From: Dehalococcoidia bacterium
GTDB taxonomy: Bacteria > Chloroflexota > Dehalococcoidia > Lucifugimonadales > UBA3495
NCBI GenBank assembly: GCA_965115825.1
Contig: OZ220464.1
Location: 2,808,874 to 2,872,873, forward strand
Length of the DNA: 64,000 bases
Direction: 5' to 3'
The notes below the pieces were generated by a model, which saw only the letters and a list, made by a program, of their open reading frames with translations, was not told the origin of the DNA and did no database searches. Shown here piece by piece: positions 20,453 to 35,560 of this stretch. Both the position numbers and the translations under genes were made by a program. Each line of letters opens with the position of its first letter. The stretch's first letter is position 1.

Positions 20453-20797
20453 TCAGCCACCGCCGCAACCGCAATTACCACACCCTCCGCCGCCGCAGCC
20501 ACCGCCGCCGCCGGAGTACATGGGGTTGTTGATGACGAAACCGACGCGACCGCCGAACTCTTCCACGTAGTCAATGGTGGCCTCTTCCAAGAAGGGCGCG
20601 CTGTCGGAATCGAGCAGAAACTCGACCCCGCTCATGCGCAGGACGGTATCGTCGGGCTGGTGTTCCTTTTCCATGGTCAGCATATACTGCAAGCCGGGCC
20701 CGGCCGGCATTGCGACGACGCGCAGGGCCGAATCGGCTTCGTTCTCGTCGTCCATAACTTCCTTAAGTTTCTCGATGGCCAGGGGGGTGATGTTCAT
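20453..20797 (-). CDS. HesB/IscA-family Fe-S assembly accessory protein
   Basis: ITPLAIEKLK, ALRV, LLDSDSAPFLEEATIDY, GFVINNP, C-terminal CGCG. Confidence 0.82.
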   Translation of the reverse strand: MNITPLAIEKLKEVMDDENEADSALRVVAMPAGPGLQYMLTMEKEHQPDDTVLRMSGVEFLLDSDSAPFLEEATIDYVEEFGGRVGFVINNPMYSGGGGGCGGGGCGNCGCGGG

Positions 20798-20984
20798 CGT
20801 AGTCGCTCCTGATGCAGTGCGCACCGGGACAACGCCCCCGGCGGCATGATGCGATTGGCTTGTCGGCAAAGCCTACCACGCAACGGGTAGTCGCGTCAAT
20901 CGGCGCGTTGCTCCGCAGGGGTTCCTGGCGGAGCTGCGGAGCTGGCCCCTTGCTGCGGGCTGCCTTTGAGTTGACCGGCCGCGG

Positions 20985-23651
20985 TTATTGGGGCGGCGCG
21001 GGTGGTGTTGGGGTTGGACTTTCCGGCGCGCCGCCCTGCCCGGGCGCTCCTCCCCCTATGTTCTCGTTGTTCGTGCTCTCCTGTACTGTTGTGACGATAT
21101 AGCTCGTCCATTGGGAGTGGCCGTAGCCGTTTTTGCTGCGAACGGAGTGCGCATAGGGGGCACCCTGGTCAAGGCCGCGGATGGTGGCGCCGGAACCGTT
21201 GAAGGTGATGGTGTAGTCGTGGGTCAGGTGACTTTCCCGGAAGGGAAGCGTCCGCCAATCGCCGGCCCGGCCGTCCCACTGCATTACTTCGTAGGAGGTA
21301 GCGCGGGCGGCGTCGCTCCAGTCCAGAGTGATGTAGCCGACGCCGGCCGTGCCGGTTAAGCCTGTGGGCATCGCTGGCAGCTCCAATCGCGTAGGCACCG
21401 GAGTTAGCGTCGGCAGATAGGCGAAGCCGGCTCCCCACTGGTTGTTGGGGCCCGGCGTGGGAGTGGGGGTGCCCGCGGGGACGCTGGCGGAGCGACGCAG
21501 GGCGTGGTCTTTGAGGAATTTAACGATGTCGGCGGGGGCGTCGGATTGTCCGGTTTTCCGGCGCATTTCGATTGCCAGTGCAGCCAGGCCGGCGACGTGG
21601 GGCGCGGCCTGGCTGGTGCCGGGCCAAGCACCTTGGTAAGCGGCTGACCTTCCTCGGTCAGCGCCGACGATATCCGGCTTGAGCCCAGACCGGCGGTCTA
21701 CTGTCGGGCCGCGGCTGCTGAACGCCTCGAGCGCGGTGGGGGTTGCCCAGTTGGCGGCGCCTACCGCCAGCATACCCCGGTTGGCGCTTTCCGCTGGGTT
21801 TGTCATGCTGTAATACTGCGTGTTATGTTCCAGATTGTCGTCGATTTCAGCGCCGGTATGGACCTGAAGCTGTACCCAGGATGGTGGCGTCTCGCCCTCG
21901 TATATTACGCGCAGGCAGTAATCAAAAGTCAAGCGCGGCGTGAACTCAATATAGTCCAGCGGGTAATGTTCGTTTGCGCCGTTCTGCGGCTGGGTACTAT
22001 CCCTGACCTCTATATCTTTTGCGAGCGGTAAGACCATCACCAATTGCAGAGCAAGGTCTTTGCTTGCTCCTACACCGTTGTTGTTCGTTCCCCTCCAGGC
22101 GTCGTCCCAGCGTAGTTGAAAGTAATAACTATGATTCCTCCTCAATCTAATTTTGTTGCAGTCATCATCACCGTTAAATTCCATACGGTCATCGGCGTTC
22201 CGGTCACTGAAAGTTCGGGAGAACCAGGTCAGCTTCGCGTGATTGCCGGCTGCGTTCACCCATACCGCCGGGTTGACTATCTTGTTTCCGTCGCTGTCCG
22301 TGGCCGGGGTGTTCCCATTGAAGACCGTGCCGTTAACTGCGGCATCAATGGCTTTGAGCGGGGTATCGTAGAACGGGGATGTGCCGTCCCCCGGTCCGTC
22401 CCAAAGATAAGTAGCCGAATGCACGATAACATCCGCTTCCCGTCCCAGCATCCAGTTCACTGTCGGCAGCAGGTGTTCCTTACTTGCGTTTGAAATCAGC
22501 AGTTTTACGTTGGGCGCGATGGCTATAACGGCCTCGGCAACGGATGTGCCGTGTGTCCCGCCTCTATTAGTACATAGTGCGAGACCTCGGTCTGGGGATG
22601 CAAGACCCGGGTTATGATTATAGCAGAGATGCTCAACCGTCACGGAGTTCAGGTGCGTTGGTAAATCTCTGAAACCCGAATAATCAATTATACCTACGGT
22701 TATTCCATCTCCTTTGTACCCGTGTACCATATTGTTATTCCACACCGTAGCGCCGTGGGCGCCGGCCGGGTTGGTGGCGCCCGATGGCTGCTGCAGCCCC
22801 GGCGAATGCATCGGGCCACCAGGGCCATAGGGTGAATAGTCGTGTGTGATCTCCACCCCGGGCAGCTTTGCCAGCCGAGGCACCAGTGACCACGGTATGA
22901 ATGTAACTACGGCGTCGGTCGTGCTGTTCTCAACATAAGGGCGATAGATTTGCCAAGGATCCAGTGTGATGTCATTGTCTTTCAGGAATTGCAGCACCCG
23001 GTCAGTGTTGCCAGAGTTTGCTGGGTTCTTGATCCAAATTTTCACATCAATATACAACCCGGAGGAACCGCTCAGGCTGGCTGCGGCTTCCTCGGCGGTA
23101 ATCAGCCCAGCTTCGTATTCGGAATACACCGCGCTCAATATAACACCCATGCCCTGATAGGGTTGTACCTTTGAGGAGATTTTGCCCACCCCGCGCATTT
23201 CCGACAGCTCGATAATCATGTCCAGCGTAAGCTCAGCCGAGATGACGCCGTTTTCCGGGTCATCCACGGCGGTGCTAGGCGTAACCCCTTTCTCTTTCAG
23301 AAAGGCCAGAATGTTGTCAAAATTGTGAGTTGCGTACCTGCTGCCGTCAGTATCGAAACGCACCTTAATCAATTCCGCGGATTCCGAACCGCTTTGACCG
23401 GAAAAGCCTGGCCGGTTAGCGGCGGCCTTATGCTTGGCCACCTGTCCCGCCAGGAATGGGCTGAAGGGGCTGTCCATTCTGACGTATTTGGTGGGTTTCG
23501 GGGTGGGGGTGTGCGTTGACGGCGAGTCTGGGGTGTTGCTTTGGCCTGACGGGGAGGCCGGCGCGCAGGCGATGGCCAGCCCAATCAGGATGACCAGCGT
23601 GGCGGCGGCGGTGAGGAGTATCAAGGGTAGGGCATTGCTGCGGCGCGTCAT
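20985..23651 (-). CDS. Lipoprotein: array-type N-terminal domain + S8 subtilase + FN3-like domain (unit E, full length)
   Basis: LAIAC lipobox; GIID, HGTSVAE, NAAGN, GTSQAAPHVAG catalytic motifs; C-terminal PTGLTG..LDWS..YEV. Confidence 0.9.
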   Translation of the reverse strand: MTRRSNALPLILLTAAATLVILIGLAIACAPASPSGQSNTPDSPSTHTPTPKPTKYVRMDSPFSPFLAGQVAKHKAAANRPGFSGQSGSESAELIKVRFDTDGSRYATHNFDNILAFLKEKGVTPSTAVDDPENGVISAELTLDMIIELSEMRGVGKISSKVQPYQGMGVILSAVYSEYEAGLITAEEAAASLSGSSGLYIDVKIWIKNPANSGNTDRVLQFLKDNDITLDPWQIYRPYVENSTTDAVVTFIPWSLVPRLAKLPGVEITHDYSPYGPGGPMHSPGLQQPSGATNPAGAHGATVWNNNMVHGYKGDGITVGIIDYSGFRDLPTHLNSVTVEHLCYNHNPGLASPDRGLALCTNRGGTHGTSVAEAVIAIAPNVKLLISNASKEHLLPTVNWMLGREADVIVHSATYLWDGPGDGTSPFYDTPLKAIDAAVNGTVFNGNTPATDSDGNKIVNPAVWVNAAGNHAKLTWFSRTFSDRNADDRMEFNGDDDCNKIRLRRNHSYYFQLRWDDAWRGTNNNGVGASKDLALQLVMVLPLAKDIEVRDSTQPQNGANEHYPLDYIEFTPRLTFDYCLRVIYEGETPPSWVQLQVHTGAEIDDNLEHNTQYYSMTNPAESANRGMLAVGAANWATPTALEAFSSRGPTVDRRSGLKPDIVGADRGRSAAYQGAWPGTSQAAPHVAGLAALAIEMRRKTGQSDAPADIVKFLKDHALRRSASVPAGTPTPTPGPNNQWGAGFAYLPTLTPVPTRLELPAMPTGLTGTAGVGYITLDWSDAARATSYEVMQWDGRAGDWRTLPFRESHLTHDYTITFNGSGATIRGLDQGAPYAHSVRSKNGYGHSQWTSYIVTTVQESTNNENIGGGAPGQGGAPESPTPTPPAPPQ

Positions 23652-23693
23652 GTTGGGTAGCCTCCGGCGTCGGGCTGGTCGGGTTGGGGGTGA

Positions 23694-24743
23694 TTATAGC
23701 CGCGCGCGGGGGGCTTCGCAAATGGCGGCGCTGTGGGTTTCGGCCGGGTTGGTGGCGCCCGATGGCTGCTGCTGCCCGGGCGAATGCATCGGGCTATTGG
23801 GAGCACTCGTATCAGGGTTTTCTCTAATCTCTATTCCCTGCAGATTTGCCAACCGGGGCACCAGCGTCCACGGTATGGAGGTAATTACGGCGTCGGTCGG
23901 TGGTATGGCCTTTGTGATATGGCCTTTAATATAGGGGCGATAGATGTTCCAAGGGTCCAGCGTGACGCCATAGTCTTTCAGGAATTGCAGCACCCGGTCA
24001 GTGTTGCCGGAGCCAGCCGGGTTCTCGATCCAAATTTCCACTGGAATGTTCATGTTCGGGTAACCGTCTAGGCTGGCCACGGCTTCTTCGGCGGTAATCA
24101 GCCCGGCTTCGTACTCGGAATACACCGCGCTCAATATAACACCCATGCCTTGATAGGGTTGGACCTTTGAGGAGATTTTGCCCACCCCGCGCATTTCCGA
24201 CAGCTCGATAATCATGTCCAGCGTAAGCTCAGCCCAGATGACGCCGTTTTCCGGGTCATCCACAGCGGTGCTAGGTGTAACCCCTTTCTCTTTCAGAAAA
24301 GCCAGAATGTTGTCAAAATTGTGGGTTGCATACCTGCTACCGTCCGTATCGAAATTCACTTCAATCAGTTCCGCGGAGTCAGAACCGCTTTGACCGGAAA
24401 AGCCTGGCCGGTTCGCGGCGGCCTTGTGCTTGGCCACCTGTCCCGCCAGGAATGGGCTGAAGGGGCTGTCCATTCTGACGTATTTGGTGGGTTTCGGGGT
24501 GGGGGTGTGCGTTGCCGTGGGGGTGTGTGTCGTTGTTGCCGTTGCCATGGGGGTAGAGGTGTGGGCTGACGTTGCCGGCGAGGTTAGGGTAGGCATGTGC
24601 GTTGCAGTTGCCGGCGAGGTAGGGGTGTTGCTTTGCGTTGGCGGGGGCGCCGGCCGGCAGGCGAGGGCCAGCCCGGTCAGGATGACCAGCGTGGCGGCGG
24701 CGGTGAGCAGTATCAGGGGTAGGGCGTTACTGCGGCGCTTCAT
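23694..24743 (-). CDS. Lipoprotein paralogue of the S8 N-terminal region only (unit D)
   Basis: Near-identical to the first ~300 aa of 20985-23651; ends just after PSGATNPA. Confidence 0.85.
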   Translation of the reverse strand: MKRRSNALPLILLTAAATLVILTGLALACRPAPPPTQSNTPTSPATATHMPTLTSPATSAHTSTPMATATTTHTPTATHTPTPKPTKYVRMDSPFSPFLAGQVAKHKAAANRPGFSGQSGSDSAELIEVNFDTDGSRYATHNFDNILAFLKEKGVTPSTAVDDPENGVIWAELTLDMIIELSEMRGVGKISSKVQPYQGMGVILSAVYSEYEAGLITAEEAVASLDGYPNMNIPVEIWIENPAGSGNTDRVLQFLKDYGVTLDPWNIYRPYIKGHITKAIPPTDAVITSIPWTLVPRLANLQGIEIRENPDTSAPNSPMHSPGQQQPSGATNPAETHSAAICEAPRARL

Positions 24744-25759
24744 GTTGGGTAGCCTCCGGCGTCGGGCTGGTTGGGTTGGGGGTGATTATAACCGCGCGCG
24801 TGGGAGGGTTCGCAGATGGTAGCGCCGTGGGCGTCGGCCGGGCTGGCAACGCCTGTCGACTGCTGCCCCGGCACCTCCATCCGGCCGTGGGGATCACTGG
24901 TATCAGGATTTGATCTAACCTCTATTCCCGGCAGCTTTGCCAGTCGAGGCACCAGCGACCACGGCACCGAGGTAAATACGGAGTCAGTCGGCGGTATGGC
25001 CTTTGTGATATCACCTTTAAAGTAGGGGCGATAGACGTTCCAAAGATGATCCACTGTGACGCGATTGTCTTTCAGGAAGCGCAGCACCCGGTCGGTGTTG
25101 CCGGAGCCAGTCGGATTCTCGATCCAAATTTCCACTGGAATGTTACCGTTCTGGTAGCCGCCCAGGCTGGCCACGGCTTCCTCTGCGGTAATCAGCCCGG
25201 CGTCGTACTCGGAGTACACCCCGCTCAGTCTGATACCCATGCCTGGATACTGTTGGCCCCTTGAGAAGATTGCGCTTACCCCACGCATTTCCGACAGCTC
25301 GATAATCGTGTCCAGCGTAAGCTCAGCCTCGATCATACCGCTCTCGGGATCGTCGAAGGTCCAGTCGAGCGGGGTAACGCCCTGCTCTTTCAGGTAGCGC
25401 ATAATGCCGGGGTAGTTGTACTCAGGCGGGTACAGGGAGCCGACAGTAAAGATAGACGCCACAATCAGCTCCTCGGCATCCGAACCGCCTTGGCCCAGGA
25501 AGCCTGGCCCCCTGGCCTTGCGCTTGGCGACTTCCCCGGCGAGGAACGAGTCGAAGGGGCTGTCCTCTCTGACGTATTTGGTTGGCGACGGTGCGGGGGT
25601 GTGCGTGGGGGTAGGGGTGTGCGTTGACGGCGAGTCTGGGGTGTTGCTCTGGGCTGACGGGGAGGCCGGCGCGCAGGCGATGGCCAGCCCAATCAGGATG
25701 ACCAGCGTGGCGGCGGCGGTGAGTAGGAGCAGGGGTAGGGCGTTGCTGCGGCGGGTCAT
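24740..25759 (-). CDS. Lipoprotein paralogue of the S8 N-terminal region only (unit C)
   Basis: MTRRSNALPLLLL..LAIAC; conserved AELTLD.IIELSEMRGV, GLITAEEA, GNTDRVL. Confidence 0.85.
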   Translation of the reverse strand: MTRRSNALPLLLLTAAATLVILIGLAIACAPASPSAQSNTPDSPSTHTPTPTHTPAPSPTKYVREDSPFDSFLAGEVAKRKARGPGFLGQGGSDAEELIVASIFTVGSLYPPEYNYPGIMRYLKEQGVTPLDWTFDDPESGMIEAELTLDTIIELSEMRGVSAIFSRGQQYPGMGIRLSGVYSEYDAGLITAEEAVASLGGYQNGNIPVEIWIENPTGSGNTDRVLRFLKDNRVTVDHLWNVYRPYFKGDITKAIPPTDSVFTSVPWSLVPRLAKLPGIEVRSNPDTSDPHGRMEVPGQQSTGVASPADAHGATICEPSHARGYNHPQPNQPDAGGYPT

Positions 25760-25802
25760 GTTGGATAGCCTCCAGCGTCGGGCTGGTCGTGTTGGGGGGT
25801 AA

Positions 25803-26747
25803 TTATAGCCGCGCGTGGGAGGGTTCGCAAATGGCGGCGCCGTGGGCGTCGGCCGGGCTGGCGGCACCCGATGGCTGCTGCTGCCCCGTCGACCCCATCG
25901 GGCCAAGAGGGAGGAACGTATCGGGATTTGCTCTAACCTTTATTCCCGGCAGCTTTGCCAACCGAGGCACCAGCGTCCACGGCACCGAGGTATATATGGC
26001 GTCAGTTGATGGTATTCCCCTTACGGTACTGCGACGAAAGATATGCCAAGAGCTCGGTATGATTCCATTGTCTTTCAGGAAGCGCAACACCCGGTCGGTG
26101 TTGCCGGAGTTTGCCGGGTTCTTGATCATAATTTTCACCGGAATGTTACCGTTCGGGTAGCCGAACAGGCTGGCCACGGCTTCTTCGGCGGTAATCAGCC
26201 CGGCGTCGTACTCGGAGTACACCCCGCTCAGTTCGATGCCCATGCCGTCGTGCTGATGGCCTATTGAGAATATTTTGCCAACCCCGCGCATTTCCGACAG
26301 ATCGATAATCATGTCCAGCGTAAGCTCAGCGTAAATTCTGCCGGACTCCGGGTCGTTAAAGGCCCGGGTAGGTGTAACGCCCTGCTCTGTCAGGTAGCGC
26401 ATAATGCCGGGGTAGTTGTAATGGAGCGGATACTGCCAGCCGGCAGTATCGAAATGCACCTTAATCAGTTCCGTGGCGCCCGAGGCGCTTTGACCGGAAA
26501 AGCCCGGCCGGTTCGCGGCGGCCTTGCGCTTGGCCACTTGTGCAGCGAGGAAGGAGTCAAAGGGGCTGTCCTCTCTGACGTATTCGGTGGGTTTCGGGGT
26601 GGGGGTGTGCGTTGACGGCGTGGCTGGGGTGTTGCTCTGGGCTGACGGGGAGGCCGGCGCGCAGGCGATGGCCAGCCCAATCAGGATGACCAGCGTGGCG
26701 GCGGCGGTGAGGAGTATCAGGGGTAGGGCGTTGCTGCGGTGGGTCAT
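25803..26747 (-). CDS. Lipoprotein paralogue of the S8 N-terminal region only (unit B)
   Basis: Same signal peptide and conserved blocks. Confidence 0.85.
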   Translation of the reverse strand: MTHRSNALPLILLTAAATLVILIGLAIACAPASPSAQSNTPATPSTHTPTPKPTEYVREDSPFDSFLAAQVAKRKAAANRPGFSGQSASGATELIKVHFDTAGWQYPLHYNYPGIMRYLTEQGVTPTRAFNDPESGRIYAELTLDMIIDLSEMRGVGKIFSIGHQHDGMGIELSGVYSEYDAGLITAEEAVASLFGYPNGNIPVKIMIKNPANSGNTDRVLRFLKDNGIIPSSWHIFRRSTVRGIPSTDAIYTSVPWTLVPRLAKLPGIKVRANPDTFLPLGPMGSTGQQQPSGAASPADAHGAAICEPSHARL

Positions 26748-26789
26748 GTTGGGTGGTCTCCGGTGTTGGGCTGGTTGGGTTGGGGGTGA

Positions 26790-27833
26790 TTATAACCGCG
26801 CGTGGGGTGCTTCGGGCTTGGTAGCGCCGTGGGCGTCGGCCGGGTTGGTGGCGCCCGATGGCTGCTGCCCAAGCGAATGCATCGGGCCATCGGGCACGCT
26901 CGTATCAGGATCTGCTCTAACCTCTATTCCCGGCAGCTTTGCCAGTCGAGGCACCAGCGACCACGGCACGGAGGTGTATATGGCGTCAGTTGGTGGTATT
27001 CCCCTTAGGGTACTGCGACGAAAGATATCCCAAGAGCTCGGTATGATTCCATTTTCTTTCAGGAAGCGAAGCACCCGGTCGGTGTTGCCGGAGTCTGCCG
27101 GGTTCTTGATCATAATTTGCACCGGAATGTTACCGTTCGGGTAGCCGAACAAGCTGGCCACGGCTTCTTCTGCGGTAATCAGCCCGGCGTCGTACTCGGA
27201 GTACACCCCGCTTAGTTCAGGACCCATGCCTGGATACTGTTGGCTCGGTGTGGAGATTCTGTCCACCCCGCGCATTTCCGACAGCTCGATAATCATGTCC
27301 AGCGTAAGCTCAGCCCTAATTAGACCGCTCTCCGTATCGTCGAAGGCCCAGATCGGGGTAACGCCCTGCTCTTTCAGGTAGCGCATAATGCCTGGGTAGT
27401 TATACTCAGGCGGATACAGCGAGCCGACGGTACTGATAGACGTCTCAATCAGCTCATCGGCGTCCGAACTGCCTTGGCCCAAGAAAGCCGGCCTTCCTGC
27501 CTTGCGCTTGGCAACTTCCCCGGCGAGGAACGAGTCGAAGGGGCTGTCCTCTCTGACGTATTTGGTGGGCGACGGTGCGGGGGTGTGTGTCGCCGTGGGG
27601 GTGGGAGCGTGTGTCGCTGTTGCCGTTGCCATGGGGGTAGAGGTGTGGGCTGACGTTGCCGGCGAGGTGAGCGTAGGCATGTGCGTTGCGGTTGCCGTTG
27701 CCGGCGAGGTAGGGGTGTTGCTTTGCGTTGGCGGGGGCGCAGGCCGGCAGGCTATGGCCAGCCCGGTCAGGATGACCAGAGCAGCGGCGGCTGCGAGGAG
27801 TATCAGGGGTAGGGCGTTGCTGCGGTGGGTCAT
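26790..27833 (-). CDS. Lipoprotein paralogue of the S8 N-terminal region only (unit A)
   Basis: Same signal peptide and conserved blocks. Confidence 0.85.
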   Translation of the reverse strand: MTHRSNALPLILLAAAAALVILTGLAIACRPAPPPTQSNTPTSPATATATHMPTLTSPATSAHTSTPMATATATHAPTPTATHTPAPSPTKYVREDSPFDSFLAGEVAKRKAGRPAFLGQGSSDADELIETSISTVGSLYPPEYNYPGIMRYLKEQGVTPIWAFDDTESGLIRAELTLDMIIELSEMRGVDRISTPSQQYPGMGPELSGVYSEYDAGLITAEEAVASLFGYPNGNIPVQIMIKNPADSGNTDRVLRFLKENGIIPSSWDIFRRSTLRGIPPTDAIYTSVPWSLVPRLAKLPGIEVRADPDTSVPDGPMHSLGQQPSGATNPADAHGATKPEAPHARL

Positions 27834-28067
27834 GTTGAGTGGCCTCCGGCGATGGATGCGTAATAGGTTGTTGCAATGCTAGCATTCGCTCTGCGGCGCG
27901 ACAATCAAGCGGAATGCGATGGACGTATTGATTTGAATTCGGTCAAATCGGCTCAGAGGTTCACGCCTGGGGCACTGTGGGAGGGGGATGGGTGTTGACT
28001 GCATTGGGCGGCGCCGATAGTCTGTTGCCGTCATTCCCGCCGCTACTATGAAAAGGAGAGTTGCTCA

Positions 28068-34949: not shown

Positions 34950-35280
34950 GGGGTTCAGGATGTCGGCGCTACGGCCCGAGAGCGTGGCTTGCTATTTACG
35001 TCCTAGTCTTGCGCGTGCTGACGGCTGCTTACGCAGTGCTCGTCCTCGCGCAGCGGTGGTGACGCCCGCCGTGCTGGGTGCGCCAGCCGGGTAATGTGAC
35101 CGACCTCCGGCGCACCACAGTGGTGCAATGGATCCGACATGCCGCACAGTACGGATGCGGCGGATTAGACCGTGATGTCCTGAACCCCGTGAGACTCCTA
35201 TTCAGTTGTGGTGTCGGGCGGTTGTCCTGGCCGGGGACGGTATCCGACGGTTCGCGCGGGGCCGTTGGATGAGCCTGACG
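34950..35280 (-). ncRNA. Putative structured non-coding RNA/leader, or MITE (34950-35188 bounded by inverted repeats)
   Basis: No credible ORF; terminal IR GGGGTTCAGGA/TCCTGAACCCC; internal hairpins; strong upstream promoter. Confidence 0.4.
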
Positions 35281-35285
35281 GGGAT

Positions 35286-35313
35286 ATTATAGCACGGTGG
35301 TACGGTTTTGCAA
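35286..35313 (-). promoter_or_regulatory. sigma70-type promoter
   Basis: TTGCAA-16 bp-TATAAT with TG extension. Confidence 0.6.
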
Positions 35314-35322
35314 ACGGGGTTT

Positions 35323-35560
35323 TGTCAGAATCAGGATTTACAGGATTTTAGGATTTTCAGGATGGGGGTTGTGGTGTGCGGTGTTGGAGGGGAGAATGGG
35401 GGTTGGTGGTGGTGGGATTGTCGGAATTGGGATTTACGGGATTTTGGGGATTTTCAGGATGGGGGAGTAGGGTGCGGTGTTGGAGGGGAGAATGGGGGTT
35501 GGTGGTGGGGATTGTCAGAATCAGGATTTACGGGATTTTGGGGATTTGCAGGATGGGGGT
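35323..35560 (+). repeat. About 95-bp G/T-rich tandem repeat, 2.5 copies
   Basis: tgtcagaatcaggatttac.ggatttt..gattttcaggatggggg at 35323, 35419, 35513. Confidence 0.8.

Follow-up and report, generated by a model that had tools for sequence, protein, structure and literature searches.

Why would a bacterium keep four stand-alone copies of the N-terminal part of a protease directly upstream of the gene for the protease itself? The question is raised by a stretch of 64,000 nucleotides (nt) from a Dehalococcoidia bacterium, here called the window, which covers positions 2,808,874-2,872,873 of contig OZ220464.1; the studied genome (G000) is a single 3.27-Mb contig (C1). On the minus strand of the window, five head-to-tail units (A to E) share a lipoprotein leader, a Pro/Thr linker, and an N-domain of ~250-270 amino acids (aa), and the last of them, E, continues into a protease of family S8. 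We refer to these units as array 1 and found a second such array in the same genome (array 2), and together the two hold eight short units (A to D and a to d) and two proteases (E and E').

Our analysis leads us to favor, at about even odds (a probability of roughly 0.5), the view that the short units encode expressed, lipid-anchored paralogs of the protease pro-region that act in trans on the proteases and are reshuffled by homologous recombination.

Organization of the five-unit array

The units of array 1 and the parts of the protease are as follows.

26790-27833, minus strand: unit A, 347 aa, stand-alone lipoprotein with a 62-aa Pro/Thr linker and a predicted double pro-region module; stop 9 codons past HGAT
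25803-26747, minus strand: unit B, 314 aa, predicted stand-alone lipoprotein paralog of the pro-region
24740-25759, minus strand: unit C, 339 aa counted from the ATG; the longest open reading frame (ORF) reaches a TTG at 25906
23694-24743, minus strand: unit D, 349 aa; 3' half near-identical to unit b of array 2
20985-23651, minus strand: unit E, 888 aa, full-length lipoprotein S8 protease
23565-23651, minus strand: leader of E
23487-23564, minus strand: linker of E
23157-23486, minus strand: predicted pro-module 1 of E
22782-23156, minus strand: predicted pro-module 2 of E
21417-22760, minus strand: catalytic domain of E, from AHGA (Asp323, His367, Ser680)
21090-21335, minus strand: fn3-like part of E

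An earlier note on this DNA, made from the letters alone, had proposed five tandem units that share a leader and an N-domain, and this was confirmed by the ORFs, by an alignment, and by a search within the genome itself. Over the first ~330 residues, B, C, D, and E are 77, 76, 72, and 65% identical to A, with a mean column identity of 67% in the alignment, and in the own-genome search the copies score E values of 1e-114 to 1e-214, far beyond chance. The same note had placed the ends of A to D shortly after the AHGA junction; this too was borne out, with stops 9 codons after H(G/S)A(T/A) in A, B, and D and 25 codons after it in C. Its description of E as an intact subtilase with an FN3-like domain held in full for the protease part, which matches Pfam Peptidase_S8 (PF00082; E 1.1e-11, 45.1 bits versus a cut-off of 21.8) and carries the catalytic residues Asp323 in GIIDYSG, His367 in HGTSVAE, and Ser680 in GTSQAAP, and held in part for the C-terminal domain, since the fn3 match of E is under the Pfam cut-off (17.5 versus 25 bits) and is clear in an ortholog from another species (E 1.6e-25).

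All five units begin with a 29-residue leader that ends in L-A-(I/L)-A-C. The 44-residue stretch that starts with this leader has 11 occurrences in the genome, all of them within the two arrays, and the next best match is 47% identical. A lipobox-like pattern of the PROSITE kind fits 11 of these 11 copies, with the Cys at position 29 (position 20 in one), and a Lys or Arg stands within the first 7 residues in 10 of them, so that the leaders appear to be of the bacterial lipoprotein type, with a charged start, a hydrophobic core, and a lipobox Cys. The Pro/Thr stalk that follows is 26-62 residues long across the 11 copies. In unit D the stalk contains a 36-nt tandem repeat of 2.1 copies (window 24551-24624).

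Nature of the N-domain

Most of 71 aligned S8 homologs have a region of ~100 residues before a nearly invariant AHGA..W motif, in which H299 and W304 are at least 90% conserved over the 71 sequences. In hhalign comparisons, both modules of the N-domain matched the precatalytic region of 61 wider Chloroflexota S8 homologs (module 2, probability 98.9%, E 1.9e-17; module 1, probability 98.5%, E 2.1e-15), and the two modules matched one another (probability 97.9%, E 6.4e-13). These matches indicate that the N-domain consists, as judged from profile homology, of two copies of the pro-region found in a large S8 subfamily of the Chloroflexota and that the short units stop just inside the catalytic domain. 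Its position agrees with this: in E and E' the N-domain comes immediately before the S8 domain, and the two are conserved together.

The short units matched nothing credible in Pfam or NCBIfam, and membership in the classical I9 propeptide family was rejected at the sequence level, where the Pfam comparison, a genome scan, and hhalign all gave nonsignificant results; the scan detected no PF05922 match in the genome at an E of <=0.1. The word "prodomain" in the earlier note is therefore apt by position and by profile homology to S8 pro-regions and does not hold for the classical I9 family.

The N-domain family is small. It comprises 10 proteins in a 5.8-billion-protein collection and 7 representatives with an E of <=0.001 among 1.84 billion, one of which, a Big_7 repeat protein, is probably spurious. 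The mature N-domain was matched in 5 of 53 other genomes of the genus (E <= 1e-5), and a scan of 185,579 species genomes found seven N-domain loci, all titled Dehalococcoidia metagenome-assembled genomes. Scans of JGI metagenomes with the S8 part and the N-domain profile found no relative. A class-wide profile search gave 33 matches outside the studied genome, of which only 2 lie wholly in the domain body; the others begin in the generic leader and linker and were disregarded. The S8 part has 1369 homologs with an E of <=0.001 among 8000 scored candidates, at ~40% identity, several of them from named Chloroflexota.

Origin and start signals of the short units

The repeat unit of 1.0-1.1 kb runs from the gene's -35 box through the 5' untranslated region, the leader, the Pro/Thr stalk, and the doubled pro-region module to the AHGA that begins the catalytic domain, of which it takes in the first four or five residues. 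The short units are thus 5'-partial tandem duplicates of the protease gene. The spacers of array 1, and the region before its first unit, are as follows.

27834-27930, minus strand: region upstream of unit A, with a deletion; only TATTAC, 26 nt before the ATG; GGAG 27844-27847
26748-26815, minus strand: spacer and promoter-like module from A to B; TATAAT 26789-26794, whose TAA is the stop of A; GGAG 26758-26761, 10 nt before the ATG of B
25760-25830, minus strand: spacer from B to C; -35 TTGCGA (the Ile-Cys-Glu codons of the B tail), 17 nt, TATAAT 25802-25807, GGAG 25770-25773
24744-24812, minus strand: spacer from C to D, within the extended frame of C; TATAAT 24785-24790; GGAG 24754-24757
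23652-23721, minus strand: spacer from D to E; -35 TTGCGA, 17 nt, TATAAT 23693-23698, GGAG 23662-23665

The 42-46-nt spacers proper and the last codons of the short units are alike in every unit. In the direction of transcription, the junction reads GCC CAC GGC GC(T/C) (A/G)CC (A-H-G-A-T/A), followed by ATT TGC GAA .. CGC GCG G(T/C)T ATA ATC, and these tail codons hold the -35 TTGCGA, a 17-nt gap, and the -10 TATAAT. The tail peptide ICEPSHARL is accordingly the promoter of the next unit in translation, and the stop codon is the TAA within its -10 box. In unit C, a 2-nt insertion before the -10 box shifts the stop, and the ORF ends in an ATGA overlap with the start of D. A -10-like hexamer is present in all four inter-unit spacers of array 1 and all five of array 2 (TATAAT in 8, CATAAT in 1), 41-42 nt before the ATG, with GGAG 8-10 nt before the ATG; the spacers from B to C and from D to E agree with the sigma-70 consensus at 10 of 12 positions. 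No terminator-like site was found on the coding strand inside array 1, which makes read-through transcription of the five genes plausible, and the short genes are probably translatable separately and cotranscribed.

The region upstream of unit A shares homology with the spacers between units and also with the sequence that precedes array 2. The latter contains TGCGCCACAGTGTGC where E has GGCGCTACGGTGTGG, with a core match of 11/13, which suggests, by inference only, that the first duplication may have joined two short similar sequences at these sites. Whatever the function of the units, this is a clean, datable 5'-partial gene duplication in which promoter sequence has been recruited as a coding tail and stop codon.

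A second array and exchange between the copies

Array 2 lies 2.6 Mb from array 1 and is made up of the following.

G000:C1:205806-213564, minus strand: array 2, in the order a, b, c, x, d, E'
unit a: 338 aa
unit b: 317 aa
G000:C1:210579-211514: unit c, 302 aa
G000:C1:209628-210536 (locus L002 2557-3465), minus strand: cassette x, 302 aa, with an unrelated lipoprotein body
unit d: 318 aa
protease E': 906 aa, paralogous S8 protease

The homologous block shared by the arrays extends from 13 nt beyond the stop of the protease gene to ~100 nt before the ATG of the first unit, and the flanks are unrelated. Of the four S8 genes in the genome, one besides E and E' (1118 aa) is of this subfamily, and it comes without a lipobox and without short copies.

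The N-domains of the different copies are 73-94% identical in nucleotides, very unevenly along the sequence, and are joined across the arrays by exact tracts.

704 nt: unit C (nt 11-714) and the N-domain of E'
400 nt: B and d
369 nt: A and a
185 + 137 nt: D and b
182 nt: the N-domain of E and b
159 nt: the 3' end of B and the 3' end of d

Outside these tracts, the same pairs drop to 73-93% identity, and the arrays are not collinear, with A resembling a, B resembling d, C resembling E', and b corresponding to E at its 5' end and to D at its 3' end. The exact tracts, the uneven identity, and the lack of collinearity show that the ten copies underwent recent gene conversion or crossover. Evidently, the N-terminal two-thirds of the N-domain of a protease can be the same allele as a stand-alone unit, and N-domains move between stand-alone and protease-fused positions by homologous recombination. 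All exact matches of at least 100 nt are between the arrays, and none was found inside either one; perhaps long direct repeats that are identical would soon be deleted from a single array. The last ~40 residues before the junction come in two forms, a "protease type" with VEI(T/R)H(D/N)Y..PGGP in E and E' and a "short type" with IEVRxNPDTS in all eight short units of this genome.

Between E and E', the most diverged part (35-64% identity) is an insert in the S8 domain (window 21730-22210, residues ~480-640 of E), in which one 40-codon window has a nonsynonymous difference (pN) about equal to the synonymous one (pS; 0.445 versus 0.431). The C-terminal 170 residues are 87-97% identical, and the protease genes are therefore mosaic as well.

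An alternative is an artifact of assembly or polishing, with repeats misjoined or paralogs cross-corrected; identical tracts that occur only between the arrays might in principle be produced if short reads were cross-mapped during polishing. We regard an artifact as extremely improbable. The genome is a single contig; units within one array differ by 6-27% in nucleotides and are therefore easy to assemble; an independent assembly gives the same kinds of proteins, including an E with one substitution; runs X1 and X2 yield contigs that show 0 differences from the parts of E, D, and B that they cover; and the same architecture is found in other species. The stretch is contained in four runs from one study, none of them listed as RNA, and the Logan contigs of these runs are shorter than the span of the units. 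Bins of low coverage in X1 and X2 were left out of the evidence. Unit-sized joints in these contigs (forward jumps of 981-2113 nt and backward ones of 948 and 2068 nt) were not counted as population variation, because at least one of them (25255->27248) is an A/C chimera that equals unit a of array 2.

The other assembly is represented in the protein collection by family members from two contigs of 510 kb and 71 kb. Its P0011 is E with the single change K714Q, and its P0014 is d-like. P0009 (318 aa) consists of the whole N-domain of E', including the protease-type end, with a short tail, ICEAPHARL, as a stand-alone gene, so that one N-domain allele can be part of a protease in the studied genome and a gene by itself elsewhere. 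Two further members, P0005 and P0006, are new mosaics, which the units of the studied genome match at no more than 87% and 83% identity, respectively; in both, a short tail follows a protease-type end. Two assemblies whose E proteins differ by 1 residue in 888 also have different sets of short units.

Cassette x joins the array promoter, leader, and stalk start to an unrelated body of 250 aa without a Pfam family. A remnant reading ..DAHGAAICE.. lies 14 nt past its stop, followed by the next promoter. Orthologs of x (43-51% identity) are present in 3 of 53 other genomes of the genus, and in at least one of them (G022) they stand apart from N-domain genes.

Such exchange could itself be what is selected, with the short units serving as a reservoir of N-terminal cassettes, donors that vary the anchor and pro-region of the protease between cells or strains. 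Segmental conversion into an expressed gene would be expected of such a system. Short units and both protease genes are connected by mosaic exact tracts, in which transfer may have gone either way: over 704 nt, C is the same as the N-domain of E', and unit b is the same as the N-domain of E in its 5' part. The E' N-domain with its protease-type last 40 aa stands alone in the other assembly, where new mosaics accompany a nearly unchanged E. The variable body is bounded by conserved arms, namely the promoter and leader before it and QQPSGA..PADAHGA (pN 0.09) after it, and in array 2 the same two arms enclose the unrelated body of x. On the other hand, every donor is a complete gene with a -10 box, a Shine-Dalgarno sequence, an ATG, and a leader, which sets it apart from silent cassettes; the 25 neighboring ORFs between 5 and 42 kb of the window include no recombinase, reverse transcriptase, or invertase; exchange between short units is as evident as exchange with the proteases, as expected of ordinary gene conversion in any repeat family; and the paralogous array explains several of the Logan-contig joints. 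We consider such a reservoir unlikely, though far from negligible. The earlier note had proposed it, and as an evolutionary process it is supported by the 704-nt identity and by P0009; as a programmed switch it finds no support in complete genes with no recombinase or reverse transcriptase among those 25 neighboring ORFs.

A broader and rather doubtful version is that the two arrays are a working N-terminal cassette exchange, in which any stored module, even the body of x, could be joined to the protease or removed from it by recombination, with the stored modules displayed as well. If so, the lineage could change the tethering, latency, or recognition of a surface protease, and the arrays would correspond, at the 5' end of a gene, to the cassette arrays of polymorphic toxins and would offer a new means of diversifying the regulation of an enzyme.

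Selection on the copies

In the mature domain, the ratio of nonsynonymous to synonymous substitution rates (dN/dS, by the Nei-Gojobori method) has a median of 0.45 and a range of 0.20-0.60 over 45 pairs. Nine pairs of short units give 0.40-0.57, each with a Fisher p of <=0.0025, and pairs that include E or E' are similar. Diversifying selection was not seen in any 15-codon window of the mature domain, where pN/pS ranges from 0.15 to 0.85 and in 0 windows exceeds 1. The copies are under purifying selection, and simple neutral decay is excluded. The earlier note had called the four short ORFs intact and diverged, which agrees with their uninterrupted frames and a dN/dS of ~0.45 across the units, and this value is at odds with the ratio near 1 that, together with a lack of expression, it had named as the sign of neutral duplication debris.

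A more elaborate neutral account deserves separate consideration, in which unequal crossover in a gene prone to repeats left the units behind as debris and frequent gene conversion is all that keeps them looking intact. Recombination is demonstrably frequent here, the leader of unit c is damaged and the stop of unit C is shifted, and the family is tiny and lineage restricted. We nevertheless judge this account to be quite improbable, as the N-domain frame is uninterrupted in all eight short units at 73-94% nucleotide identity, the dN/dS of 0.40-0.57 holds between short units that are not recent conversion partners, start signals are conserved that conversion donors would not need, and intact short forms in another species (G030) are separated from the full-length gene by a dS of >1.

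Short forms in other species of the genus

In that species, the order is a 395-aa short form, a 1104-aa S8 gene with fn3, and a 420-aa short form, all intact. Both short forms extend 18-30 residues beyond HGAD, so that they stop shortly after the motif with the catalytic Asp, and their dN/dS relative to the full gene is 0.32-0.46. Another genome (G012) has four tandem leader-bearing ORFs of 401, 357, 355, and 342 aa, three of which end <=15 residues after an HG(A/T) motif; the three ORFs that match the N-domain profile have a dN/dS of 0.35-0.40. A third (G001) encodes P0017 (L023 5909-7996), a 695-aa lipoprotein in which two complete N-domains are followed by AHGAAAW and an fn3-like end, with no catalytic domain; it looks like a natural deletion of the protease core. 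The truncation points differ among the species and are always near the boundary between the pro-region and the mature enzyme. Taken together, these forms show that N-domain lipoproteins that stand alone or lack a catalytic domain are a recurrent, long-lived feature of the genus.

It is conceivable that such lipoproteins have a job of their own that is independent of any protease, for example, binding a surface polymer or substrate, and share with the protease only common ancestry, the promoter, and the leader. The tandem units of G012, near which no S8 gene was seen among same-strand ORFs in the 8 kb downstream, would fit this view, as would P0017 with its two N-domains, its fn3-like end, and no catalytic domain, and the fact that I9 membership is not detectable. 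It is harder to reconcile with the homology of the domain to the region immediately before the catalytic domain in 61 other S8 proteins, which is the site of subtilase pro-regions, with the boundary motif kept in the short units, and with the short units that adjoin S8 genes in both G000 and G030. We take such an independent role to be a serious but unlikely contender.

A proposed role in trans

The subtilases, with their pro-regions, are the classic example of enzymes that carry their own chaperone and inhibitor, and this bacterium appears to have made such a pro-region into a small multigene family that is membrane anchored and shuffled with the enzyme genes. We propose that, after processing by signal peptidase II, the short proteins would sit on the outer face of the membrane, where each could bind a mature S8 domain in trans, as the cleaved propeptide of subtilisin does in cis, and would thereby hold the protease at the cell surface and/or inhibit it or aid its folding. 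In E, the lipid anchor is predicted to be on the pro-region, and autocleavage at the boundary would otherwise free the enzyme, which after cleavage would be held only by noncovalent binding to the anchored pro-region. Additional anchored pro-regions would then add docking and inhibiting capacity, and the sequence variety of the units, together with stalks of 26-62 aa, may provide a graded panel of docks for two paralogous proteases.

Several observations weigh against this proposal. Unit c has lost 1 nt in codon 9-10; its original frame ends at a TGA that overlaps an in-frame ATG, and a product begun there would have a leader without the charged start. Promoter-like sites in the region are not above the level of shuffled sequences (3 found versus 2.6 +/- 1.5). 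Pfam I9 (PF05922) was matched by 0 of 25 family members of the N-domain alignment at an E of <=5; hhalign against an alignment of six I9 domains from the same class gave a probability of 1-4%, with the best register, which was not significant, always placing the last strand-helix-strand of each module on the corresponding end of I9; and in a search of PDB profiles with the N-domain alignment the best E was 0.65, which we judged to be noise. The G012 units, with no S8 gene seen among same-strand ORFs in the 8 kb downstream, would mean that the partner protease need not be adjacent. Finally, a dN/dS below 1 could in part be inherited from protease-fused copies through gene conversion, and given this possible past in a fused position it is no proof of selection on the short proteins themselves.

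If the short proteins do bind the proteases, they would amount to a natural set of inhibitor or tether variants, diverged yet matched to one enzyme, that could serve studies of pro-region specificity, and they would explain how a secreted protease stays at the surface of wall-less cells of the Dehalococcoidia type. If, instead, exchange is what the arrays are for, they would constitute a new class of cassette system.

Genomic surroundings

The neighbors of array 1 are ordinary and include a gamma-glutamyltranspeptidase, a pentapeptide-repeat protein, an Fe-S assembly protein, an enoyl-CoA hydratase, an FtsJ-type methyltransferase, and others. The Fe-S assembly protein (HesB/IscA type; window 20456-20869, minus strand), just downstream of E, has an unusual C-terminal tail of Gly and Cys only, GGGGGCGGGGCGNCGCGGG. 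Rfam detected no RNA family in 19-37 kb of the window. A noncoding stretch of 335 nt (window 35033-35367) is 85% identical, in inverted orientation, to G000:C1:221321-221674, so that one copy lies 7-8 kb upstream of each array; it has no Rfam family and no convincing ORF.

Comparison with known systems

The classical I9 propeptide of subtilisin (PF05922) is an intramolecular chaperone and temporary inhibitor. Like it, the N-domain lies directly N-terminal to an S8 catalytic domain; unlike it, the N-domain is doubled, is separated from the catalytic domain by ~30 flexible residues, and does not match the family significantly in sequence.

In pilE/pilS of Neisseria and vlsE of Borrelia, gene conversion from cassettes varies a surface protein. 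As in these systems, tandem diverged partial copies adjoin a full-length gene for a surface protein, and mosaic tracts show segmental transfer. In contrast to them, each donor in the arrays is a whole gene that appears to be expressed, what varies is an enzyme's N-terminal pro-region, no switching was seen, and no dedicated recombination element was found among the 25 ORFs between 5 and 42 kb of the window. Membership in the silent-cassette class was rejected, as every unit has a -10-like box, GGAG, an ATG, and a full leader. A diversity-generating retroelement was likewise rejected, since those 25 ORFs contain no reverse transcriptase and the differences between units are not limited to adenine positions.

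In polymorphic toxins, recombination between a full-length gene and neighboring stand-alone C-terminal cassettes with a shared junction is reported to generate diversity (PMC3482391). The array units resemble these as stand-alone cassettes that share a junction with a full-length gene and differ from them in being 5' parts that lie upstream with their own starts, with no toxin domain and no immunity genes. Assignment to orphan toxin cassettes was rejected, as the units are N-terminal, upstream, and provided with starts, and no small immunity-like ORFs lie between them.

In the literature searched, supplementary files being outside its scope, we found no description of tandem arrays of pro-region paralogs that exchange sequence with a bacterial protease gene. 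The statement in the earlier note that no system of this form had been described was too strong, however, since stand-alone proteins resembling subtilisin propeptides, one of them encoded beside subtilase genes, are reported to be potent inhibitors, the examples listed being Plasmodium SUB1-ProM, Toxoplasma MIC5, Pleurotus POIA1, yeast PBI2, and Arabidopsis SPI-1 (PMC6993865). These are the closest counterparts of the array units. Like the array units as predicted from sequence, they are secreted proteins whose only domain resembles a subtilase pro-region; they are held to act in trans on a mature subtilase, a role proposed here for the array units; and the inhibitor of Plasmodium is, like the array units, encoded next to subtilase genes. 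The array units stand apart in having two modules, a lipid anchor, and a stalk, with no detectable I9 signature. They are recent paralogs of the neighboring protease's own pro-region rather than distant mimics, and they occur in two arrays of four that exchange sequence with the protease genes.

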